A DNA stretch of 64,000 nt, taken from positions 44,640,001 to 44,704,000 of the forward strand of contig OX597821.1 in the NCBI GenBank assembly GCA_951406725.2. Direction: 5' to 3'. Origin of the DNA: Octopus vulgaris. Its lineage: Eukaryota. A program made the translations under genes and the position numbers. The notes under the pieces were generated by a model, which saw only the letters and a program-made list of their open reading frames with translations, was not told where the DNA came from and did no database searches. The stretch's first letter is position 1. Every line of letters starts with the position of its first letter. Shown here piece after piece: positions 1,442 through 61,841 of this stretch.

Positions 1442-3663
1442 GTAAGTAACATCTGCTGTATTTATTTTGTTGTTTAACCCAATATCAGCTTTGACCAAGC
1501 AGACCTATAGTCAGAGATAAAGCAGACATAATACATCTTATTTTCAGACTCTGTAATATCTAAGACTACACTATTAATTGTTTTCTTACTTTTTTTTTAA
1601 GATGATTGTGTGTGATTAAAAGCAGTTTGGCTACTACTTGTTGCAGGTTGAGCAACAATGTAGAGGTTCCCTCTTTGGCTCATTGTCTTCATAAGCAACT
1701 CTATATATTGTTTTATAAGTAATGTCTGATCTACTTCTGATCTTTAAAAGTAAATGTTTGGTCTATTTGCTATATGTTATAGACTTGTTGTCTTTAAAGG
1801 TAATGTTTGATGTATTTGTTAATCTATAAGTAATATATGAATGCTTATTTATAAGCAATATCTACTTTGATTATATATTTATAAATAGTGTCTGCTACAC
1901 TTTTTGATATAAGAGTAATGCCTGTTCTATTTATTGACTTTCAACTCTTCTAATATATCAAATAATTACATCCAAACATCCAGCTCAAAAATTAACTAAT
2001 TTTTTTCAAAATACTTCCAGGAAAGGGTAAAGAGTGTCTATGTGGGGGAGGGTAAAGTATATGTGTGGGAGAGGAAGGCAGTGTATGTGAATGGATTGAG
2101 TTAGAAATGAAAATATGACAGCAAAAATTAGCATAAAAGCGGGAGGTAACTCCCCCTATCTTTCTCTCGTCTCTCCACTATCAACTGGCCCCTAATCCAT
2201 TCTCCAGTTTAACACAACCTGCTGACCTTTAATCCATCATTCAGTTCAACACTGGCTCTTTCTTGATGCTTGGATGTCTTTAGCAGATGCTTTCTGTTGC
2301 AAGCATTTAGGTCAAACGTTACCTCTCAAAATAACTTCTTCATTACCTGCTATCAGTTTTGGAAGCCCTAAAAATTGTCATGAATGTTCCCTAATTACTA
2401 TGTCTAACCTATAAAATAGATATAAATTTAAGTACATTCCATTTCCCTTCAGTAGAGTTTTACAGTTGAGTCTTAACTGTGTAAAATCAGTAAACTTAGC
2501 TGCAAGTGATGGCAGTGTGTGAGGTTAATATTTATGTTTCGGTGGGTATCATTGATTAGTCCCAGGTCAGCCCAGGTCACACCTAACCTAGAATGAAAAT
2601 CCATGACCACCCTACCTTTTTAGGATTTGTATTAGATGACCATGTCCAATGTCCATCCAGTTTTAAGATTAGAGAGCATCATTTTAGGGAAATTTAGCTA
2701 CTATATCTATCAAGTGGAATGATATGCTAGTAACTGTTGTGGCTTTTATAGCAGAAAACAGAAATATTTCTGTTGGGTGATTATTCAATACTTTATAGCT
2801 TAAACATGATTTCTTGATTGAATTTCTAAAGTATACCGACATTGTTTGACGTTAGTGTAGGTAGGTAATGTAGCTAGCTAACTACAGTTAGTTATTATAC
2901 ACATTATGATGTGAGTGTAGCGATACTGATATAGCTAACTATATCAATGTATTTCTCTGCAAACAGACACATGCATTGTGGTGTGTATGGAGGTGATGTG
3001 CAGATATACATATTATGACATGTGTAGATAGGGGATACAGGTAACTAGCAATCTAGATTTCCAAAAATAAATACACATTGTGATGTGTATAGGCAAATGA
3101 TGTAGCTAACTAGCAATATGTTAGTTTGCAGTTACACACACAGATGTAAGTAACAATAGAGGTTTCATGTTGCTTAAATAACATTATTAGTGGTCAACTT
3201 TTCAAAACATCTTCTTGTAACAATTGTTGTTTGACTAAACAGAAAGCCTTGTATTCTTCACTGACTGGTGTAATCAACTAAATTAAATAAACCCCTATTG
3301 ATTATTAATATTTAGTTTATTTATACTTGTTCAAATGTTAAAATTGACCTCACAAAAACCTAACACTATAAATGTACTTAATTTTATGTAATGTACTTGA
3401 TTTAATGACCCAAGACATTTTCATACCCTAAAAATGACATTCATAGTGTGGATAAGAAAATCAAAATGTAAATGACTAACTGGTCACAAAAGTAGGGGAG
3501 ACAATCCTAGAATTTTAATTGATGAAAATTGATTATAGCAATGAAAAACAATGGTGAGCAAATTTGATACAGTGACCACTATGTCCATGTTTCCATCTTA
3601 AGTTTATTCTCTTTATATTTTCTCTATTCATTCTAATTTGTAGACGTAATGGGTATACTATAC

Positions 3664-6517: not shown

Positions 6518-6669
6518 ATGTAACAGAATTAAGTGAATAGGTCGCAAGAATGTGATGAAAGCATTTGGTATTGAAAACCACATTAAAAACAAGTGAACGA
6601 TTTCTACAAATCATTAGATGTGTGTGATTCTATTTATCTTAACCGTTACTTAATTATCTCTATGTGCAG

Positions 6670-6834
6670 TGTTAGCGAATGCTGATTCATCAAATACTTT
6701 AAAGCAGCTAAGACGGAAGTCTGAAGAAGTGGAACAAGCAAAATCTTTTGACACAGAAGGCAGCATGGAATCATATGACATCACGTGGGATGTTGGAAAC
6801 TCTGAATGGGACCCCATCAAGAAACAACATACAC
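6670..6834 (+). CDS. BIVM: BIVM-family gene, coding exon 2
   Basis: Acceptor tgcag at 6669, donor gtatgc at 6835. Encodes ITWDVGNSEWD, resembling human BIVM LAWEIDKSEFD as recalled. Phases 1/1. Confidence 0.8.
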
Positions 6835-6898
6835 GTATGCATTTGAATTATATTCTATTTGTTATTGTTGGACACTCTCTCTTTCTCTCCCATGTGTA

Positions 6899-6972
<74 letters not shown>

Positions 6973-6980
6973 CTGTCAGA

Positions 6981-7313
6981 AGTGGATGGCTCAGTGGTTA
7001 GAGCGTCGAGCTTACGATCGTGAGGTTGTGAGCTCGAATCCCGGACCGGGCTGCGTGTTGTGTTCTCGAGCAAGGCACTTTATTTCACGTTGCTCCAGTT
7101 CACTCAGCTGTAGAAATGAGTTGCGACGTCACAGGTGCCAAGCTGTATCGACCTTTGTCTTTCCCTTGGATAACACTGGTGGCGTGGAGAGGGGAGGCTG
7201 GTATGCATGGGCGACTGCTAGCCTTCCATAAACAACCTTGCCCGGACTTGTGTCTAGGAGGGTAACTTTCTAGGTGCAATCCCTTGGTCATTCATGACCG
7301 AAGGGGGTCTTTA

Positions 7314-29377: not shown

Positions 29378-30530
29378 GTAAGTAACTCATTATTTTTATA
29401 ATTTATCTTTGCAATGATTATTGTGTTAACATACACTACACACCGCTCAGTTTACCTTTTAATAAAAATACACTTATTCTCTACAGCCTCAATCTCATTC
29501 ATAAAACATAACATTTTATTTCCTCGATTACTTTTCTTTCCTAAAAGACTGCAATTTTACTATATCCATTCTTTGCTAAAATCTGACTTCTAAGATTTTT
29601 CAGCAGGCAATTAATTTGTCGTCATCTTTGAATGACATAAGACCAGGAAATAAAAAATATTTAATGCAGCTGACAGGGCCAAGACTGGAATAGATAGCGA
29701 TATAGAGATTTGAACAGGTCAAGAAATATGGAGTGATGTTGTGACTTTATGCAGCAACAATTTTAATTGTCATTTTTAACTGATATTGATTACAAGCCAT
29801 ATTAAAGGCTTTACATCACTTAAATCCTGGTTATTTTTCTTATGTTCTTATATAATAATAGTGTATGTTTAGGGTAAATAGAACTGGTTGGAGGTGAAAT
29901 TGGTGCAGATAATAGGTAATTGAAGCATAGTGTACAGCAGAAATCTATGAAGAGAAATGGAATTTGACAACTGCTTGTTTGCAAAAATGGCAAGGCTCAT
30001 CATGGTTTGAATTTAGGTAAAGACTGTTTGGAACTTTACCTTTTCAACTAAAGGCACAATTATTAATATAATTCATGGGAATATGACAAAACATTTTCAT
30101 TTCTAATTATTTATTGCAATAGAAAGAATTACAGAATTATTTAGTACCAATTAAAATTCATTTGATATTTTTTCAGATTCCAGAAATCTAATTTTTTCAT
30201 ATATTTACAAAATATGTTTGTCAGTTCTATCAGTTTGCTTTATTAAGAATTTATTCATGTGTAAATGTTGCTTATTTTTTCACATTCAATTTTACTATAT
30301 CCATTTATTGATTCTTAACTAGTAGAACTTTCCTGGAATTTGTCCCCTTGTGACTAGCTACTGATATAGCAACAGTCTTGTTCTTCCTCAATGTAACACT
30401 AAAGACAGCAGAATCAATAAACACTAGCCACATGATTCGCTATAATTCATAAAACCATTTTAATTTTTGAACATTTATGCAAGTTAATCAAAGTGTTTTG
30501 TGATGATGAATTTTTGTCATTTCTCTTTAG

Positions 30531-30951
30531 GTGGGACCACATTCTAACAGATCTCAACTGTAAAGCCCCAGACTTTCTTGATATTCGCAGACTGGAAAGA
30601 GGGATTCGTCAAAGAAAAAATCTACAGAAGCTTTTTGATAGCAATGACCATTGTATTCTAACATTCCAGAAGTGCCAAAATGACCAGGAAATGGTAGCTG
30701 AAGATGCAGATGATGACGATGACGATGATGATGATGGAGATGAAGAAGAAGAATATGATGAATCTCCACCACAAGAGATCATTGGTTTAAGTGATGATGA
30801 TGAAGAAGATGAGGAAGAAGATGAACAGTGCCTATTAACTACTACAAGACCTCCAAAAGAAAGTCAGGATGGTGACCGTTTAGAAAAAGAAGAAGAGGAA
30901 TTATTAGAAGGAGACATGGATGCAGATGAAGATTATGATAACATTCTCTGA
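30531..30951 (+). CDS. BIVM: BIVM-family gene, last coding exon (conserved domain end plus D/E-rich tail)
   Basis: Acceptor ctttag at 30530. Encodes WDHILTDLNCKAPDFLDIRRLERG...HCILTFQ (cf. [24 protein letters not shown]...HCIIAFQ). Stop TGA at 30949-30951. The joined CDS is 1854 nt, 617 aa. Confidence 0.95.
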
Positions 30952-33382: not shown

Positions 33383-34084
33383 CTACTAATGGAGGATGAA
33401 GTTTTTTTACAGAAAAAAAATTCCATCAAAAAAGTGACAGCATATTAAAATACCTTTAAAGGTTAAAATTATAAACAACTTAAAAACAAGGGCAAAATAA
33501 AATTATTTCTATGCCAATATGTTGATAACAGACTTTTAAATCGTCAATTTCCACATATTATTATACCCACTACAGAAGTATGTTGTGCTGAAATCGAGGA
33601 AAGCTAACCAACAGAATTTTTTTAAAAGTTCATTATTTCTATATTGAATCAATTTCGGAATTAATCTCATAATAGATTTTTTCCTCTTCAGTAGAAAATA
33701 CGAATAGAAATAAATGAAATACTTACATGCGCAACCAAAGGATTTTATATTTAGATATATCTGGGGTACTAATATGTACTCATGACTTTTGCTTCAGCTT
33801 TTTTTTTCCATGGGCACATGTAAGTATTTCATTTATTTCTATTCATATTTTCTACTGAAGAGGAAAAAATCTATTATGAGATTAATTCCGAAATTGATTC
33901 ATTATAGAATCATTATAGAACCATGTGTATATGCATGTATATATTTATTTATACATATATATATATATATACATGTATATATGTATATATATACCTGTAT
34001 ATATTTATTTATATATATATTTACATATATATGTATATACATGTGTGTGTGTATATATATATACATGTTTATAAATATATACAT

Positions 34085-39489: not shown

Positions 39490-40960
39490 GGGAAGCCTCA
39501 TGACATGGAAAACAACTGGAAATTTCTTGAGGAGTCATTAATCAGATCTGTGGATGGACCATGTTTTCAACAATGCAGAAAGTGAGATGTTAGTGAAATC
39601 ATATGGTAGAAATGTGTCTAGCAAGGAGAGAACCTGAATGTAAGAAATTTACCCATGTTCTATTCTGTGAGGACCAGAAACATGAAATATTCCACATGGC
39701 AAAATCAGTGTGGATCAGAAAATAACCCGTGAACAATGTGTATGGAATGATTGCAGAATGCTCAGCTTCCCAGAGCCAAGAAGACTGATATGAAAATGTC
39801 ACTATGTGTCATGGGCGAGAGAGGGGTAAACTCAACTGAGTAAACCTACCTGTGAAACCTGCTATAAAGGCTGACAGATGGTTGAAAGTGGTTATGAAGG
39901 AGATGAAGTCAAGGAAAGCAGCAGGACCATCAGCATTAATTGCCAAGATACTGAAAATCTATGGCAAAGTAGGATATGTATGAGTCACTTGTATTATCAA
40001 GTAGATAAAGTAGGAAGTGAAAGGTAGACTGTATGAGGCATGTGTGCGAACTGCCATGCTACACTGCAGTGAAACATAGGCTGTAACTGCTGAGGACATG
40101 CGTAAGCTTGCAAGAAATGAAGCTGGTATGCTTTGCTGGATGTGTAATGTCAGTGTGTATACATGACAGAGTGTAAGCACTCTGAGAGAAACGTTGGACA
40201 TAAGAAGCATCAAGTGTGGTGTGCAAGAGAGACAACTGTGCTACTATGGTCATGTGTTGCATATGAATGAGGACAGCTGTGTCAAAAAGTGTCACACCCT
40301 AACAGTGGCGGGAACCTATGGAAGAGGTATACCCAGGAAGACCTAGGATGAGGTGGTGAAGCACAACCTTTGAACTTTGGGCCTCACAGAGGCAATGACA
40401 AATGACCAAGACCTTTGGAAATAGGCTGTGCTTGAGAAGATCCAGCAAGCCAAGTGAACATAACTGTTGTCTATGCCAGTGCCACATAACTGGCTCTAAG
40501 AGTACCCTTCAATCATTGGGCAATGTATTGTGCTTGAGAAGACCTGTTGAGTCAAGTGAAATCATTGGTGTGGCTAATGCCTGACTGGTACCCATGCCAG
40601 TGGTATGTAAAATGCACCATACGAACATGGTCAATGCCAGCAGCACGTAAAAAGCACCATTTGAGTGTGGTTGTTACCAGTGCCACCTGACTGGCTCCTG
40701 TGCCAGTGACATGTAAAAAGCACCATTCAAGCGTGATCAGTGCCAATACCACCTGACTGGCCCCTGTGCTGGTGAAATGTAAAAAGCACCCACTACACTT
40801 TCAGAGTGGTTGTCATTAGGAAGGGTATCCAACTGTAGAAATCTTGCCAGATCAGATTGGAGCCTGGTGCAGCCTCCTGGCTTGCCAGTCCTCAGTCAAA
40901 CTGTCCAACCCATGCCAGCATGGAAAGTGGATGTTAAACTATGATGATGATGATGATGAT
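39490..40960 (+). mobile_element. Degenerate, internally deleted RTE LINE copy
   Basis: Blocks are collinear with the intact RTE (e.g. gcatgtgtgcgaactgccatgct, gatgaggtggtgaagcac). It has the shared 3' UTR and (GAT)n tail. Confidence 0.85.

Positions 40961-46191: not shown

Positions 46192-46193
<2 letters not shown>
45871..46193 (+). mobile_element. 5'-truncated copy of the same SINE family
   Basis: gggcaagtgtcttctactatagcctcgggcc...ggtggtgctccagcatagtcgcagttaaatgactgaaacaagtaaaagag. Confidence 0.85.
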
Positions 46194-46234
<41 letters not shown>

Positions 46235-46300
46235 GGAGTAAGCACATATATGTGAAACAAGGTGGAAAAAAGAGTACTCAAGTACCGGAGGTAGAGTAAT

Positions 46301-46404
46301 ATGCTTTATTTAAAAGCAGCAGAAATATAGCAAAAGCTGTTACACAGAGTTTCACATGAAACTCTGAGTAACAGCTATATTTCTGCTGCTTTTAAATAAA
46401 GTAT
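46301..46404. repeat. Palindrome in a short (TA)n-flanked element
   Basis: ctttatttaaaagcagcagaaatatagc...gctgttacacagagtttca / tgaaactctgagtaacagc tatatttctgctgcttttaaataaag. Confidence 0.9.
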
Positions 46405-47509: not shown

Positions 47510-50500
47510 CACCAGCTCCTGCCCACGGCGTGGTCAGGTTGGAAGAGAGATCAAAAGAAAAATACCACGAAAACTATCACCACCACTACAACCCTCCTCT
47601 TCTCAGGCGCCGAATCCCCCTGTCCCCCCCACATCTCCTTCCCAGTTTTCAGAGTTGGCACTATCAATGTTGGTACATTGACAGGCAAGTCTAGTGAGAT
47701 TGTAGAGATGCTAGAGAGAAGACAGGTTGATGTATGCTGCATACAAGAGGTAAGATGGAGAGATGCTTCGGCTAGGGTCCTCACGGGCAAGGCACTTAGA
47801 TACAAACTCTACTGGCAAGGTAACGCGGAAGGTGTAGGGGGTGTAGGCATTCTCCTTGCGGAGGAATGGGTGGATAAGGTCATAGAGGTTGTCAGGGTTT
47901 GTGATAGAGTGCTTAAGCTCAGGTTGGTCCTACAGAGTGGCACAGCTATGATTATCTCAGCCTATGCCCCACAAGCGGGACTACCAAATGATCAGAAGGA
48001 CAACTTTTATGATACCCTTCTGCAGGCTACTTCAAAGACTAGTAACAAGGACCTCATCTTTGTAGGTGGAGATTTTAACGGGCATGTTGGGCGGGAATCG
48101 GGTATCTTCACTGGGGTACATGGTGGATATGGTATTGGCACCAGAAATGATGAGGGAACTAGACTACTGGAATTCTGTGATGCATGTAACCTTTCAATCT
48201 GCAACACTAACTTCAAGAAGCCAGTCTGCCACCTTATAACTTATCAGTCAGGAGACTCCGCTAGCCAAATAGACTTCATCCTCACCAGACAACGGGATGC
48301 AGGGTTGCTCTTGAATACAAAGACCCTCCCGGGTGAAGAATGTATCCCTCAGCATAGACTAATCATCAGTGACTTTAAGCTTGAGGCCAGAAGGACTCCA
48401 AGAAACAAACCAATCCAGAAAAGAAGGATTTGGAGGCTAAAGAACCCTTCGCATGGTCAGAAATTTAGGGACATACTCATCAAGAAATTTGATGAGAGGG
48501 AAGAGGAGCTTCAGACGTCAGACATAGAAGGTAGCTGGGAATTCCTACGGGACAGCTTGTTGAGTGCCACAGACCAAGTTTGTGGATGGTGCAAAGTCCC
48601 TTCCAGACCTAGAATTACGTGGTGGTGGAATAGTGCAGTAGATAAAGCCATCTGTGAAAAGAGACGGGCCTGGAAAGCCTGGAAGGATGGGGGCAGCAGG
48701 GAACTGTACCAGATAGCCAAAAGGGAGGCTGGGCGGCAGGTATACATTGCCAAAGATGTAGCAGAAAAGAAGAAGTTTGCCAATGTCCAGCGTCGCGAGG
48801 ATCAAAGAGCTGAAGTATTTCGGATTGCCAGACAGTGTGTCAGAGAAAATAGCGATGTTATAGGAGAGAAATGTGTCCGCATGGATGATGGGGCACTTGC
48901 TTTTACTACTAGTGAAAAGAAAGAGGCTTGGAGAAGCCATTATGAAAGACTGCTAAATGAGGAGAATGAATGGGAGGAGGAGAGCCTGCCAAATGTTGAC
49001 CCAGTAGAGGGACCAGCTACCCGAATAGACAGCTCCCTTGTAGATAAGGCAATTAAGGATATGAAACCAGGCAAAGCCCCTGGCCTATCAGGAATCACTG
49101 CTGAGATGCTTAAAACAGCTGGCTATGTGGGCCATGCCATAGTCACCCGCATTGTAAACCAGGTAGTTCACAATGGAGCCATACCCAATGACTGGTGCAG
49201 CAGTACCATAGTCAACTGCTACAAGGGTAAGGGTGATGCTCTAGATAGAAATAACTACAGAGGTATCAAACTGTTGGACCAGGTGATGAAGGTCTCAGAG
49301 AAGGTCATAACCAATCTCATTAGGGAGAGAATTTGTTTAGATGAAATGCAGTTCGGTTTTGTACCAGGTAGAAGCACCACTGATGCTATATTCCTGGTCC
49401 GACAACTGCAGGAGAAGTACCTAGCTAAAGATAAACCCCTCTACATAGCTTTTGTAGACTTGGAGAAAGCCTTTGACAGGGTTCCCCGTTCCCTTATCTG
49501 GTGGTCGATGCGGAAACTGGAGATTGAAGAATGGCTAATAAGGGCTGTACAGGCTCTATACAGAGAGGCTGTTAGCAAGGTTAGGATTGGCAACGAATAT
49601 AGTGAAGAATTCCGAGTAGAAGTAGGTGTGCACCAGGGCTCAGCCCTCAGTCCCCTTTTGTTCATCATAGTCCTTCAAGCAATAACAGAGGAATTCAAAA
49701 CGGGATGCCCCTGGGAGCTCCTCTATGCCGATGACCTAGCTCTCATAGCAGAATCACTACCGGAACTAGAAGAGAAATTTCGGGTATGGAAGCAAGGGTT
49801 GGAATCAAAGGGCCTTAGAATAAATGTAGCAAAGACCAAAGTATTAGTAAGCAGCAAGAGGTACTCAACACACATCCCCTCGGGTAGGTGGCCCTGCTCA
49901 ACCTGTAGGAAAGGTACAGGTAGAAACTCCATAAGATGCACCCAATGTAAGTTATGGACACATAAGAGGTGCAGCAACATTAAAGGGAAATTAACAGATA
50001 AGATAGCTTACATGTGCGGCAGATGCACAGGGACAATAGACACAACAGACACTCAGAAAACAGATTCCATCACACTCCAGGGAGAGAAACTAGAAGTAGT
50101 TGATAGTTTCCGCTACCTGGGAGACCAAGTTAGTAGCGGAGGTGGATGCACAGAGAGTATCACCACTAGAATACGAATAGCCTGGGCAAAGTTCAGAAAG
50201 CTCCTACCCCTACTGGCAACAAAAAGCCTCTCCCTCAGAGCAAAAGGTAGATTATATGATGCATGTGTGCGAACTGCCATGCTTCACGGTAATGAAACAT
50301 GGGCTGTGACTGCAGAAGACATGCGTAGACTTGAAAGAAATGAAGCTAGCATGATCCACTGGATGTGTAGTGTCAGTGTGCACGCAAAACAGAGTGTAAG
50401 TATCCTGAGAGAAATGCTGGATATAAGAAGCATCAGATGTGGTGTGCAAGAGCGACGCTTGCGATGGTATGGTCATGTGCTGCGGATGGATGAAGAGAGA

Positions 50501-50815
50501 TGTGTGAAGAAGTGCCACTCCCAAACAGTTGAAGGTATCAGGGGGAGAGGTAGACCCAGGAAGACATGGGATGAGGTGGTCAAGCATGACCTCAGAGCAT
50601 TGGGCCTCACTGAGGCAATGGCGAAGGACCGAGATCTCTGGAGATATGCTGTGACTACAAAGACCCGGGCTGCTTTCTGCAGCAATTCCACATACCCCCT
50701 ACCCATTCTAAGTACCCCGGATCCCCAAAGTACCCCGGATCCCCAAAGTACCCTGGATCCCCAAAATACCCCGATCCCCAAAGTACCCCGGACCTCGTTG
50801 CCCCCGTGCCGCTGA
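47510..50815 (+). CDS. RTE LINE ORF: AP endonuclease, reverse transcriptase and PHD-type Zn finger
   Basis: Stop-free frame from 47510. Motifs: GTINVGTL, CCIQEVRW, GGDFNGHVG, NYRGIKLL, QFGFVPGRST, FVDLEKAFD, GVHQGSALSP, YADD (49724-49735), FRYLG and RGRPRKTW. Confidence 0.95.
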   Translation, partial: HQLLPTAWSGWKRDQKKNTTKTITTTTTLLFSGAESPCPPHISFPVFRVGTINVGTLTGKSSEIVEMLERRQVDVCCIQEVRWRDASARVLTGKALRYKLYWQGNAEGVGGVGILLAEEWVDKVIEVVRVCDRVLKLRLVLQSGTAMIISAYAPQAGLPNDQKDNFYDTLLQATSKTSNKDLIFVGGDFNGHVGRESGIFTGVHGGYGIGTRNDEGTRLLEFCDACNLSICNTNFKKPVCHLITYQSGDSASQIDFILTRQRDAGLLLNTKTLPGEECIPQHRLIISDFKLEARRTPRNKPIQKRRIWRLKNPSHGQKFRDILIKKFDEREEELQTSDIEGSWEFLRDSLLSATDQVCGWCKVPSRPRITWWWNSAVDKAICEKRRAWKAWKDGGSRELYQIAKREAGRQVYIAKDVAEKKKFANVQRREDQRAEVFRIARQCVRENSDVIGEKCVRMDDGALAFTTSEKKEAWRSHYERLLNEENEWEEESLPNVDPVEGPATRIDSSLVDKAIKDMKPGKAPGLSGITAEMLKTAGYVGHAIVTRIVNQVVHNGAIPNDWCSSTIVNCYKGKGDALDRNNYRGIKLLDQVMKVSEKVITNLIRERICLDEMQFGFVPGRSTTDAIFLVRQLQEKYLAKDKPLYIAFVDLEKAFDRVPRSLIWWSMRKLEIEEWLIRAVQALYREAVSKVRIGNEYSEEFRVEVGVHQGSALSPLLFIIVLQAITEEFKTGCPWELLYADDLALIAESLPELEEKFRVWKQGLESKGLRINVAKTKVLVSSKRYSTHIPSGRWPCSTCRKGTGRNSIRCTQCKLWTHKRCSNIKGKLTDKIAYMCGRCTGTIDTTDTQKTDSITLQGEKLEVVDSFRYLGDQVSSGGGCTESITTRIRIAWAKFRKLLPLLATKSLSLRAKGRLYDACVRTAMLHGNETWAVTAEDMRRLERNEASMIHWMCSVSVHAKQSVSILREMLDIRSIRCGVQERRLRWYGHVLRMDEERCVKKCHSQTVEGIRGRGRPRKTWDEVVKHDLRALGLTEAMAKDRDLWRYAVTTKTRAAFCSNSTYPLPILSTPDPQSTPDPQSTLDPQNTPIPKVPRTSLPPCR
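50710..50792 (+). repeat. 18-bp tandem repeat at the end of the RTE ORF
   Basis: agtaccccggatccccaa, about 4.5 copies, translated as STPDPQ repeats. Confidence 0.9.
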
Positions 50816-58539: not shown

Positions 58540-59343
58540 GCTGTGCGTGAGAAGACCCAGCAAGACTAGTGAGGCCTCTACCTGGCCTCTACCTGGTATG
58601 TAGCCAGTCGACTTATACATACCTTTCCTTCTTGGGACACAAAACTCCACTTGTGAAGACCCGTTGAGGCAAGTGAAAATCAAAAAATCAAAATCAAAAT
58701 CAAATCAGATATCAGAAAGCAGAACCAAAATCGAAGTCGATCAACATCAATGGAAATTGCGGCTGTGATACCAGTGCCGGTGACAAGTAAGCGAACCATC
58801 CGATTGTGGCCGTTGCCAGCGCCACCCAGACTGGCCTCCGTGCCGGTGGCACGTAAAAGCACCATCCGTTCGTGTCCATTGCCAGCCTCGCCTGGCCCCC
58901 GTGCCGGTGGCACATAAAAGCACCATCCGTTTGTGGCTGTTGCCAGCCTCGCCTGGCCCCCGTGCCGGTGGCACGTAAAAAGCACCATCCGTTCGTGGCC
59001 GTTGCCAGCGACGCCCCGACTGGCCTCCGTGCTGGTGGCACGTAAAAGCACCATCCGTTCGTGTCCGTTGCCAGCCTCGCCTGGCCCCCGTGCCGGTGGC
59101 ACGTAAAAGCACCATCTGTTCATGGCCGCTTGACAGCACCGTCTGGCACCTGTGCAGGTGGCACGTAAAAAGCACCCACTACACTCGCGGAGTGGTTGGT
59201 GTTAGGAAGGGCATCCAGCCGTAGAAACACTGCCAGATCAGACTGGGCCTGATGCAGCCTTCTGGCTTCACAGACCCCAGTTGAACCGTCCAACCCATGC
59301 TAGCATGGAAAACGGACGCTAAATGATGATGATGATGATGATG

Positions 59344-59399: not shown

Positions 59400-59702
59400 A
59401 GGTGCAATGGCTCAGTGGTTAGGGCAGCAGACTTGCGGTTGTAGGATCTCGGTTTCAATTCCCAGACAGGGCGTTGTGAGTGTTTATTGAGCGAAAATAA
59501 AGCTCCAAAAGGCTCTGGCAGGGGGTGATGGCGATCCCTGCTGTACTCTTTTGCCACAAATTCCTCTCACTCTTTCTTCTGTTGGCCTGCTTGCTTAGCC
59601 AGCAAGGTGGTGTCATTTGAAAGCTAAAATAACGCGAAGCGCATTGTGACCAACGATGTGTAGCAACATCTGCTAGCCTGGTCAGTCATGGTGATCATAG
59701 TG
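59398..59702 (+). mobile_element. tRNA-derived SINE (second family)
   Basis: A box tggctcagtggtt and B-box-like ggtttcaattccc, between (TG)n and (TA)n tracts. Confidence 0.8.
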
Positions 59703-59733
<31 letters not shown>

Positions 59734-59987
59734 TACATATATATATATATACATATATATACATATATATATACATGCATACATATATATACATATATAC
59801 ATACATTTACATACATATATATACATATATACATATATATAAATATATATATATATATATGTGAAATAGAAAGATGAATAATCTTGTGGCAGATTAATCA
59901 AAAGTTTGACCATGGGCTCTTAGGAGCCTAGTTCGATTTGTTTTGCTCCGCCTCTGTTCTGTTTTTTGTTTTTTCCAACGGATTTCC

Positions 59988-60080
59988 TATTTCTTCCTGA
60001 AGAGAAAGACACAATATGGTCTCATTATTCAATCGGATTTTGGTAAATTGTGCCTTTCGAAACACGTGTAGAATGAAATA
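59988..60080 (+). ncRNA. Minimal type I hammerhead ribozyme motif
   Basis: Core CUGAAGA at 59997-60003. Stem II gaaag-a-cacaat/attgtg-c-ctttc. GAAA at 60059-60062. Stem III with palindromic ACACGUGU. GUA cleavage triplet at 60068-60070. Stem I tatttcttc/gaa-t-gaaata. Confidence 0.8.
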
Positions 60081-60130
60081 AAATGATTTCTGTTCAATCT
60101 TCGTTCAGCTCCATTTCTTCAATTCACTAA

Positions 60131-60172
<42 letters not shown>

Positions 60173-60199
60173 TATATACATATATATACATATATATAC

Positions 60200-61841
60200 A
60201 GCTACTGGCCCTGATGGATTCCCAGCAATCCTTCTAAAAGTATGTAAGCGAATCCTAGCAAGACCACTGCAGTTCCTCTTTCAGAGCTTCCTTGCAACTG
60301 GCAAACTTCCAAGAAAACTGAAGGAGGGTAAAATATGCCCTATTCATAAAGGAGGTAGCAGAGCAGAGGCCAAGAACTACAGACCTATCTCTCTGACCTC
60401 ACACATCAGCAAGGTCATGGAACAAATATTCAGAAAGAAACTAATCACCTTCCTTGAAGAAAATGGCTTTCTGCCTGACACCCAACATGGTTTCCGACGA
60501 GGAAGAAGCTGCCTAACTCAGCTCTTACAACACTATGACTGGGTGCTGAAACAACTGGTCAACCACTCAACTGTGGAAGTGATATATCTCGACTTTGCAA
60601 AGGCCTTTGATAAAGTTGACCATGGAATATGTCACAAACTGCATGATCTTGGCATAATTGGAAAATTGGGAGAATGGCTTCATGACTTTCTGAAGGATAG
60701 AAGTCAGGTGGTAGTAGCCAATGGGGCCACCTCCAAAGACACGCAAATAGTGAGCGGTGTTCCGCAAGACACTGTTTTGGAACCACTGCTGTTCATAATG
60801 GCCCTCTCAGACATGCCCTCAGCCACACAGAGAGCCACGATAACAAGTTATGCAGATGATGCAAAAGTTTCACAGGTAATACAGAACCCTGAAGACACTA
60901 TGCACCTGCAATGTGAGCTGGATGAAATATACAAGTGGGCTGAAAAGAATAGCATGCAGTTCAATGCTGAAAAGTTTCAAGCTTTATGCCATCAGCATGC
61001 AAAACTAAATGCAATACCCAATAAATACACTGGACCTGGAGGAATTGCAATCCCAGAGGCACAATCAGTGCGAGACCTGGGCATTTACATGAGTAATGAT
61101 GCAACCTTTCATGTGCATGTTGCTAAATTGGCAATGAAATGTAGGCAGCTGACCGGATGGATTCTTAAAACTTTTAGAACAAGAGACCAGGAAACCATGA
61201 TGATCCTCTGGAGAACACTTGTCCTAAGCCACTTTGACTATTGCTCTCAGCTATGGTCACCAACCAGTATGTCAAATTAATCTCAGAACTTGAGGCAATC
61301 CAATGAAGCTACACGAAGAAGATAGCCTCTATGCAGCATATAAGCTATTGGGAAAGACTCAAGAGGTTAAGACTCTATTCCTTAGAGCATAGGCAAGAAA
61401 GATATGCCATAATATACATCTGGAAGATTCTGGAAGGACTTGTCTCAAACTTTGGCATTGAGAGTTACACAAATACTAGAACTGGGCGCCACTGCATAGT
61501 GCCAAGGACTCCAAATTTGCCATCAAGATGTAGGACCAGATACTGCAATAGCCTGGGCTTCAGAGGTTCACAGCTCTTCAATATCCTCCCGAAAGACTTG
61601 AGAGACTTGCATGGGGTAGATGTAGGTGTCTTCAAAATAAAGCTGGACCTCTTTCTGTCAGGTGTCCCAGATGAACCAACTTCGCTGCAGGAGGTGCAGA
61701 TGAGGGCAGCTGCATCAAACTCTTTCATGCACCAAATGTCAATTGCTAAAAAGCATTCGTGAAGTAAAATCATGTAGCAACACCAAATGGCGGTGCCCCA
61801 GCATGGCCACAGCTCGTGAGCTGAAACTAGATGGAAAAAAA
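60200..61841 (+). mobile_element. 5'-truncated CR1-group (CR1/L2/Daphne-like) LINE, frameshifted RT
   Basis: GPDGFP, NYRPISLTS, QHGFRRGRSC, YLDFAKAFDKV, SGVPQ, YADD, RDLG, SYWERLKRLRLYSLE. The 3' end is ggcggtgccccagcatggccacagc...ctgaaac. Confidence 0.92.

Follow-up and report, generated by a model that had tools for sequence, protein, structure and literature searches.

The window analyzed here is a 64,000-nt stretch of Octopus vulgaris DNA, in which a short noncoding insertion carrying a hammerhead ribozyme motif lies between two TA repeats. An earlier note on this DNA had placed a TA-flanked element at 59861-60136. Both TA arrays are real, and the sequence between them consists of two arms that match the terminal repeat (pLTR) of a Penelope-like retrotransposon (PLE). 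The features of the locus are listed below, with signed positions counted from the predicted cut site.

59703-59860, no strand: left target tract of (TA)n type, from a tandem-repeat scan
59861-59911, minus strand: inverted arm, the last ~50 nt of the long 3' end with its tail to about +216 (52/54 identity to the tail at locus L013)
59897-60136, plus strand: sense arm, pLTR from -173 to about +66, ending in the short 3' end (237/242 identity to L013)
59988-59996, plus strand: 5' strand of hammerhead stem I, inner 3 pairs invariant in 9/9 aligned copies
59997-60003, plus strand: catalytic core CUGANGA, from the descriptor (core positions 11/11 the same in subfamilies A and B)
60004-60015 with 60047-60058, plus strand: stem II, 12 positions of which 11 are paired (7/12 pairs changed on both sides)
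60059-60069, plus strand: GAAA core and 8-nt palindrome, predicted by cofolding to form an intermolecular stem III
60068-60070, plus strand: GUA triplet, with the cut predicted after 60070 from the hammerhead consensus position
60071-60080, plus strand: 3' strand of hammerhead stem I, with a bulge at 60074
60133-60198, no strand: right target tract of (TA)n type, from the tandem-repeat scan

Other features occupy the remainder of the window. A 5'-truncated LINE reverse transcriptase (RT) fragment (60199-61762, plus strand) directly follows the right TA tract and has a longer relative at locus L049. The APE-RT LINE frame at 47510-50815 (plus strand) is stop-free over 1,101 codons and apparently intact; we take this LINE to be RTE-like. 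Probable host-gene exons with acidic stretches are found at 784-1449, 6654-7001, and 30436-30951 (plus strand). The tandem array at 58770-59176 contains 6.4 copies of a 61-bp unit, and a similar unit of 66 bp is present at 40647-40790.

Using a motif descriptor scan, we recovered all core nucleotides of a type I hammerhead as the earlier note had described them: CTGAAGA at 59997-60003, GAAA at 60059-60062, and GTA at 60068-60070. Its account of the stems was also accurate. Stem II is opened by the G10.1-C11.1 pair, contains 11 pairs in 12 positions with one A-C mismatch, and closes a loop of 31 nt that contains a small apical hairpin (60004-60058, plus strand); stem I consists of nine pairs and one bulge (59988-59996 with 60071-60080); and the self-complementary segment of stem III is the 8-nt palindrome ACACGTGT (60062-60069). 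A strict form of the descriptor, with thresholds of at least 10 for stem II and at least 8 for stem I, matched once in the 64-kb window and in none of 200 locally resampled windows. The folding stability of the hammerhead monomer is ordinary compared to shuffled sequences (z -0.22). The note had suggested a check with covariance models, and here Rfam returned no hammerhead family at the gathering threshold (whole window) or at the E-value threshold (59500-60500), probably because of the long stem II with its loop and the split stem III.

Two candidate features were rejected. The AATAAA motif to which the earlier note had drawn attention is present, but we gave it no weight because it is absent from subfamily C and from copy B_L045. 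A role as poly(A) signal was rejected given this lack of conservation and the position of the long end and the ORF downstream of the motif. A second, loose hammerhead match on the minus strand near 33690 was rejected because it has no palindrome and falls within an inverted-repeat element. This element (33383-33921, ~540 bp) is flanked by TA, contains a long internal inverted repeat (about 33630-33710 vs 33840-33920), and is MITE- or fold-back-like.

A genome search with 59861-60136, as the note had proposed, yielded abundant copies that led outward to a coding element. The 276-bp stretch gave 1,558 candidate genome matches, 40 of them scored, and a 26-nt motif spanning the core, stem III, and cut site had 1,489 exact matches in the genome, compared to 0 for the reversed control. 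The coding element forms head-to-tail arrays of a 3,622-nt unit (tandem period 3,622 to 3,625), in which the ORF is followed by the 3' UTR, the hammerhead, a tail of ~150 nt, and the next ORF, whose ATG lies at +268 after the predicted cut site. The hammerhead sits in the pLTR on the sense strand. Along with pLTRs and tandem units, we found an inverted 5'-truncated copy and a one-ended tail, which are features of endonuclease-bearing PLEs (EN+). None of the listed sequencing runs is recorded as RNA; contigs from four runs that we guessed to be RNA cover the PLE but cannot reveal its ends, strand, or level.

A stop-free frame of 899 to 908 codons was present in 7/10 fetched regions, and RT-region copies of subfamily A are 98 to 99% identical. 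For the 895-aa protein, the predicted structure (AlphaFold, pLDDT 80) best matches telomerase RT (E 1e-9), and the motifs DKT, RW(K/R/L), YRDD, R/H/E/N, CxxC, and CxH align with those of 14 relatives. The C-terminal domain, which is confidently folded in the model, contains a two-strand GIY-YIG-type motif with R, H, E, N, CxxC, and CxH, and the catalytic Y, G, R, H, E, and N are kept in subfamily A frames. Pfam returned nothing relevant on the 895-aa ORF or on 16 aligned proteins, a PDB sequence profile search with the protein gave no match below E 0.1, and the listed fold matches of the model include no GIY-YIG structure; the assignment of the endonuclease is based on motifs because none of these searches names the domain. 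Judged from its sequence, the parent is an autonomous PLE that encodes, in one ORF, a telomerase-like RT and a C-terminal domain that is of GIY-YIG type by motif. Rfam misses hammerheads of this kind, as Pfam does ORFs of this kind. We rejected identity with Naiad because the endonuclease is C-terminal here, whereas Naiad/Chlamys PLEs have an N-terminal endonuclease and no canonical hammerhead (PMC8557442). Another PLE family, with a different C-terminal GIY-YIG and a CxxC linker, occurs at L042:6919-8859 as an inverted pair beside a tandem array.

Given this parent, the earlier note's proposal of a nonautonomous element at 59861-60136 is not supported; that stretch joins two pLTR segments from an autonomous PLE of 3.62 kb, and these segments overlap by microhomology at 59897-59911. 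We consider it highly probable that the window copy is a 5'-truncated, two-armed PLE pLTR insertion carrying a hammerhead that is predicted to cut only when paired through its palindrome. With TA on either side, a target-site duplication is unreadable in the window; a 15-bp duplication is visible by eye at locus L005.

Of the 30 loci from the 276-bp search, 16 share the layout of the window copy, as would be expected if the 276-bp stretch were a self-standing, nonautonomous retroelement (retrozyme- or SINE-like) that is transcribed whole and propagated by the PLE protein. The same microhomology junction position is found in 6 of these 16 copies, 13/109 mapped arms start within -180 to -150, and animal retrozymes have been argued to derive from pLTRs (bioRxiv 10.64898/2026.07.22.740005), all of which agree with that explanation. 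However, there are 13 different junction sequences among the 16 copies, the recurring junction is found on three subfamily backgrounds, and the window copy is only the small end of a continuum because arm lengths run from 37 to 3,933 nt. Retrozymes are defined as tandem hammerhead units, yet no same-strand neighboring motif was found within 1 kb among the first 100 matches listed on contig C1, indicating that there is no retrozyme-type short tandem array, and the window holds a single hammerhead copy. On these sequence comparisons, a self-standing element appears largely refuted, and we regard it as very improbable.

We mapped insertions at 70 loci drawn from among the first 100 matches to the motif listed on C1, in order of position rather than score, leaving out a known tandem array, the L028 site, and the last three insertions. 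The map comprises 62 insertions with 109 arms, and the sampling requires that one arm spans the cut site. Both outer ends were in view in 47/62 insertions, and every one of these 47 pairs a short end (+62 to +70) with an inverted long end (about +216); there were no short+short or long+long pairs among the 47 two-armed insertions on C1. The other 15 insertions have only one end visible (nine short, six long). The same short+long pairing was found, at their own end positions, in 5/5 two-armed insertions of subfamily B (29 loci) and 4/4 of family D (30 loci). No arm 5' end fell within -4 to +6 of the cut site (0/109, of which the 14 partner arms starting downstream of the cut provide the fair test).

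Overlap between the two arms of an insertion reaches 2.4 kb, which implies the use of two RNAs or displacement of the first cDNA by the second RT. Near-symmetric junctions account for 8/37 simple two-arm junctions, compared to 1.9 expected (p 0.00025), an excess that hints at a fold-back step in joining. The arm 5' ends that cluster at -180 to -150, including that of the window arm, lie around a short palindrome that precedes the ribozyme. Single arms of at least one unit length (3,635 to 3,933 nt) were observed at L081, L090, L114, and L118, a length expected if the RNA template is multimeric or circular.

The presence of short+long pairing in all 47 two-armed insertions points to priming from both target strands on uncut RNA. 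In the mechanism we propose, the RT-endonuclease would cut a TA tract on both strands, and RT would then be primed by each of the DNA ends at one of two fixed positions within a template RNA left uncut by the ribozyme. The two cDNAs, stopping at variable points, would be joined head to head, in many cases through microhomology. A minimal product of this process would be the window copy, in which the long arm was cut to ~50 nt and the short arm extends from -173. In tandem read-through transcripts, two hammerheads could pair through an intermolecular stem III of 8 bp and trim the RNA to unit length; trimming of multimeric read-through RNA is the likely role of the ribozyme. By analogy, this mechanism fits the data for the anole PLE, for which RT starts at two adjacent internal sites, both strands are cut and extended, uncut RNA is the template, and ribozyme cleavage needs protein (PMC11167929). 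A tail at one end only has already been noted as frequent in PLEs (PMC8557442), so the short/long rule sharpens a known pattern. The strict pairing of ends provides a genomic readout of how PLEs prime on the two target strands, a question that the first in vitro study did not settle.

To examine conservation of the hammerhead, we aligned nine rows chosen from 56 distinct matches to span subfamilies A, B, and C. Both-side changes were present in 8/19 pairs, compared to 0 to 1 in slid controls and with none of 500 shuffles reaching 8, although these counts come from three related subfamilies and, as the tool warns, kin can exceed shuffles. The changed pairs comprise 7/12 stem II pairs and 1/4 palindrome pairs. 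Covariation in stems I and II had been put forward in the earlier note as a test; stem II covaries, and the three stem I pairs counted are all invariant. The note had also named conservation of the core among genomic copies as a criterion, and all 11 core positions are indeed identical between subfamilies A and B, whose overall identity is 73%. The cleavage triplet changes from GUA to GUC in subfamily C, which stays within NUH, and the palindrome center changes from CG in subfamily A to TA in subfamilies B and C. Because the center bases of the palindrome are adjacent, they can pair between molecules only. As judged from these substitution patterns, the hammerhead structure is under selection.

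When two copies were cofolded, the minimum free energy structure was a hammerhead dimer with open cores and an 8-bp joint stem III (-42.7 kcal/mol vs 2 x -14.9 for the monomers), and the stem III pair probability in the monomer was 0.03. The cofold and the palindrome change support the earlier prediction that this Penelope-type, type I hammerhead needs a dimer, and PLE hammerheads with palindromic stem III are known to behave as dimers (PMC4209133; reviewed in PMC6765202). We conclude that the hammerhead is real and, according to the folding model, predicted to cut only as a dimer paired through the palindrome. The lone hammerhead in the window, which has no partner in cis, is likely to be inactive unless paired in trans.

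The insertion anatomy would hold equally well if the hammerhead were slow or vestigial and its fold were kept for protein binding or for positioning both RT start sites, which would be in line with the lack of arm ends at the cut site. Published observations point the same way: PLE hammerheads are weakly active in vitro even as dimers (PMC4209133), the anole element has no RNA-seq ends at the cut site and its insertion is unaffected by ribozyme mutants (PMC11167929), and Naiads spread without a hammerhead (PMC8557442). Against this, the catalytic core has remained intact at 11/11 positions while the flanks drifted to 73% identity, the triplet varies only within NUH, and the palindrome has changed on both sides at once. 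This sequence pattern fits selection for an active dimer, and we therefore consider a slow or vestigial hammerhead unlikely, while still giving it real weight.

Almost all of the mapped ends lie at TA repeats, bearing out the earlier suggestion of a retroelement that inserts in TA microsatellites. After four of 58 short-end rows were dropped as internal copies mis-sorted by the script, (TA)4 was present within 25 nt of 53/54 terminal short ends and 53/53 long ends, compared to 5.3% of random positions. Taken together, 106/107 ends in this young subfamily abut (TA)n, and most subfamily B and C ends also run into TA. The insertions at L055 and L107 sit in a common host repeat, empty copies of which carry TA at that position (24 and 29 matches among the loci compared); because the empty copies already carry TA, the tract pre-exists the insertion.

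The CxCx5C linker zinc finger has been associated with TA targeting (PMC8557442). It is present in 70/73 database relatives with an endonuclease core and in family D, and it is absent from subfamilies A, B, and C, of which B and C are older sister subfamilies. In subfamily A, the linker is a Ser/Asn/Gly-rich stretch of ~130 residues (residues 633 to 765) that is predicted to be disordered (AlphaFold). In the subfamily B ORF, the linkers at L141, L150, and L136 contain expanding asparagine runs (AAT repeats) of variable length, in frame. The subfamilies without the finger still land in (TA)n. We tentatively propose, rating it just short of an even chance, that this Hydra-related PLE lineage has kept near-absolute (TA)n targeting after a disordered stretch replaced the finger, so that aiming does not depend on the finger, and that PLE integration is an obligate double priming on uncut RNA, with one target strand always priming at the upstream RNA site and the other at the downstream site. 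If true, a single mechanism would account for both the tail at one side and the inverted 5' arm of PLEs.

Targeting in trans would give the same pattern of ends: the fingerless RNA may be mobilized, or its target nicked, by the finger-bearing family D, in which case TA targeting would be uninformative about the finger. With 63 scored matches that are almost all stop-free, family D is both abundant and intact; it also keeps the CxCx5C linker and ends in TA. Subfamily A, however, has many near-identical intact frames (98 to 99%) that retain the catalytic residues Y, G, R, H, E, and N; it is only ~35% identical to family D, and the end positions of the two differ. Furthermore, all three of subfamilies A, B, and C are fingerless, and the low identity between their C-terminal regions (50 to 58%) suggests long independent survival of this state. 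Help from family D is a decidedly unlikely explanation.

Family D itself (L151-L180, e.g. G000:C27:15433926-15436052) is a 727-codon Hydra-type PLE, abundant and largely intact; it has the CxCx5C linker and a small hammerhead, its two 3' ends are separated by about 70 nt, and it constitutes a natural control for the fingerless lineage. A terminal piece of this family (~125 bp, 88% identity) is present in the window at 46229-46353 (minus strand), beside TA at 46193-46232. The fingerless family offers a test bed because it is young, has intact frames and ~1,500 copies of the ribozyme, and has naturally lost the proposed targeting finger.

Among described PLEs, the Hydra clade (Craig et al. 2021, PMC8557442) is characterized by DKT, RWK, the lack of CCHH, a CxCX5C linker, hammerheads, (TA)n targets, and a length generally <3 kb. 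Like the elements of this clade, the octopus family has a single ORF with RT and a C-terminal domain that is of GIY-YIG type by motif, DKT and the RW motif, CxxC and CxH near E and N, no CCHH, a pLTR hammerhead with palindromic stem III, (TA)n targets, and an inverted 5'-truncated arm. It differs in having RWL for RWK, a length of 3.62 kb and 895 aa as opposed to under 3 kb, and a Ser/Asn/Gly-rich stretch in place of the CxCx5C linker. Its hammerhead, with a 12-position stem II, a 31-nt loop, and an even 8-nt palindrome, also differs from those in the Hydra rows of File S2 (PMC8557442), where stems II and loops are much shorter. Hydra-1_Obim (2,507 bp; PMC8557442) is a different octopus family with another N-terminus and another hammerhead. 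We therefore file the subfamily A family, on the basis of sequence motifs, as a PLE that works like Hydra and not as a full member, because the CxCX5C linker is absent; its RT motifs resemble Hydra by eye.

The octopus hammerhead resembles the metazoan PLE hammerheads of Cervera and de la Pena (2014, PMC4209133), which are type I, have G10.1-C11.1, a long stem II, and a palindromic stem III needing a dimer, and are mostly dispersed single copies from truncated PLEs. Unlike those hammerheads, it has no extra base between positions 9 and 10.1, and its stem I is longer (nine pairs with a bulge in subfamily A). Two internal RT starts that define the tail, AT-rich targets, and a template that is probably uncut RNA are shared with the Anolis Poseidon element PAc (Frangieh et al. 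2024, PMC11167929). The octopus tail measures ~150 nt, compared to 30 to 40 bp in PAc, and the hammerhead is 268 nt upstream of the ORF, whereas that of PAc overlaps the ORF start. Short+long pairing is strict in the genomic insertions mapped here, a pattern for which we saw no count for PAc. Non-LTR retrozymes (bioRxiv 10.64898/2026.07.22.740005) are likewise noncoding, derived from PLE repeats, and equipped with a type I hammerhead; they consist of head-to-tail tandem hammerhead units, in contrast to the single head-to-head truncation of a coding element in the window.

Hammerheads in PLE repeats and TA targeting have already been published for the Hydra clade (PMC8557442), so the core finding is ordinary. 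The repeat library of PMC13282606 includes 31 recently active Penelope-like families and may already hold the subfamily A family unnamed. Our literature searches, which covered few subscription papers, returned nothing on this family, on PLE twin priming, or on finger-independent TA targeting. Overall, compared to known systems, the hammerhead itself is an expected PLE part, and the less ordinary features are the fingerless TA-targeting lineage and the strict pairing of short and long ends.
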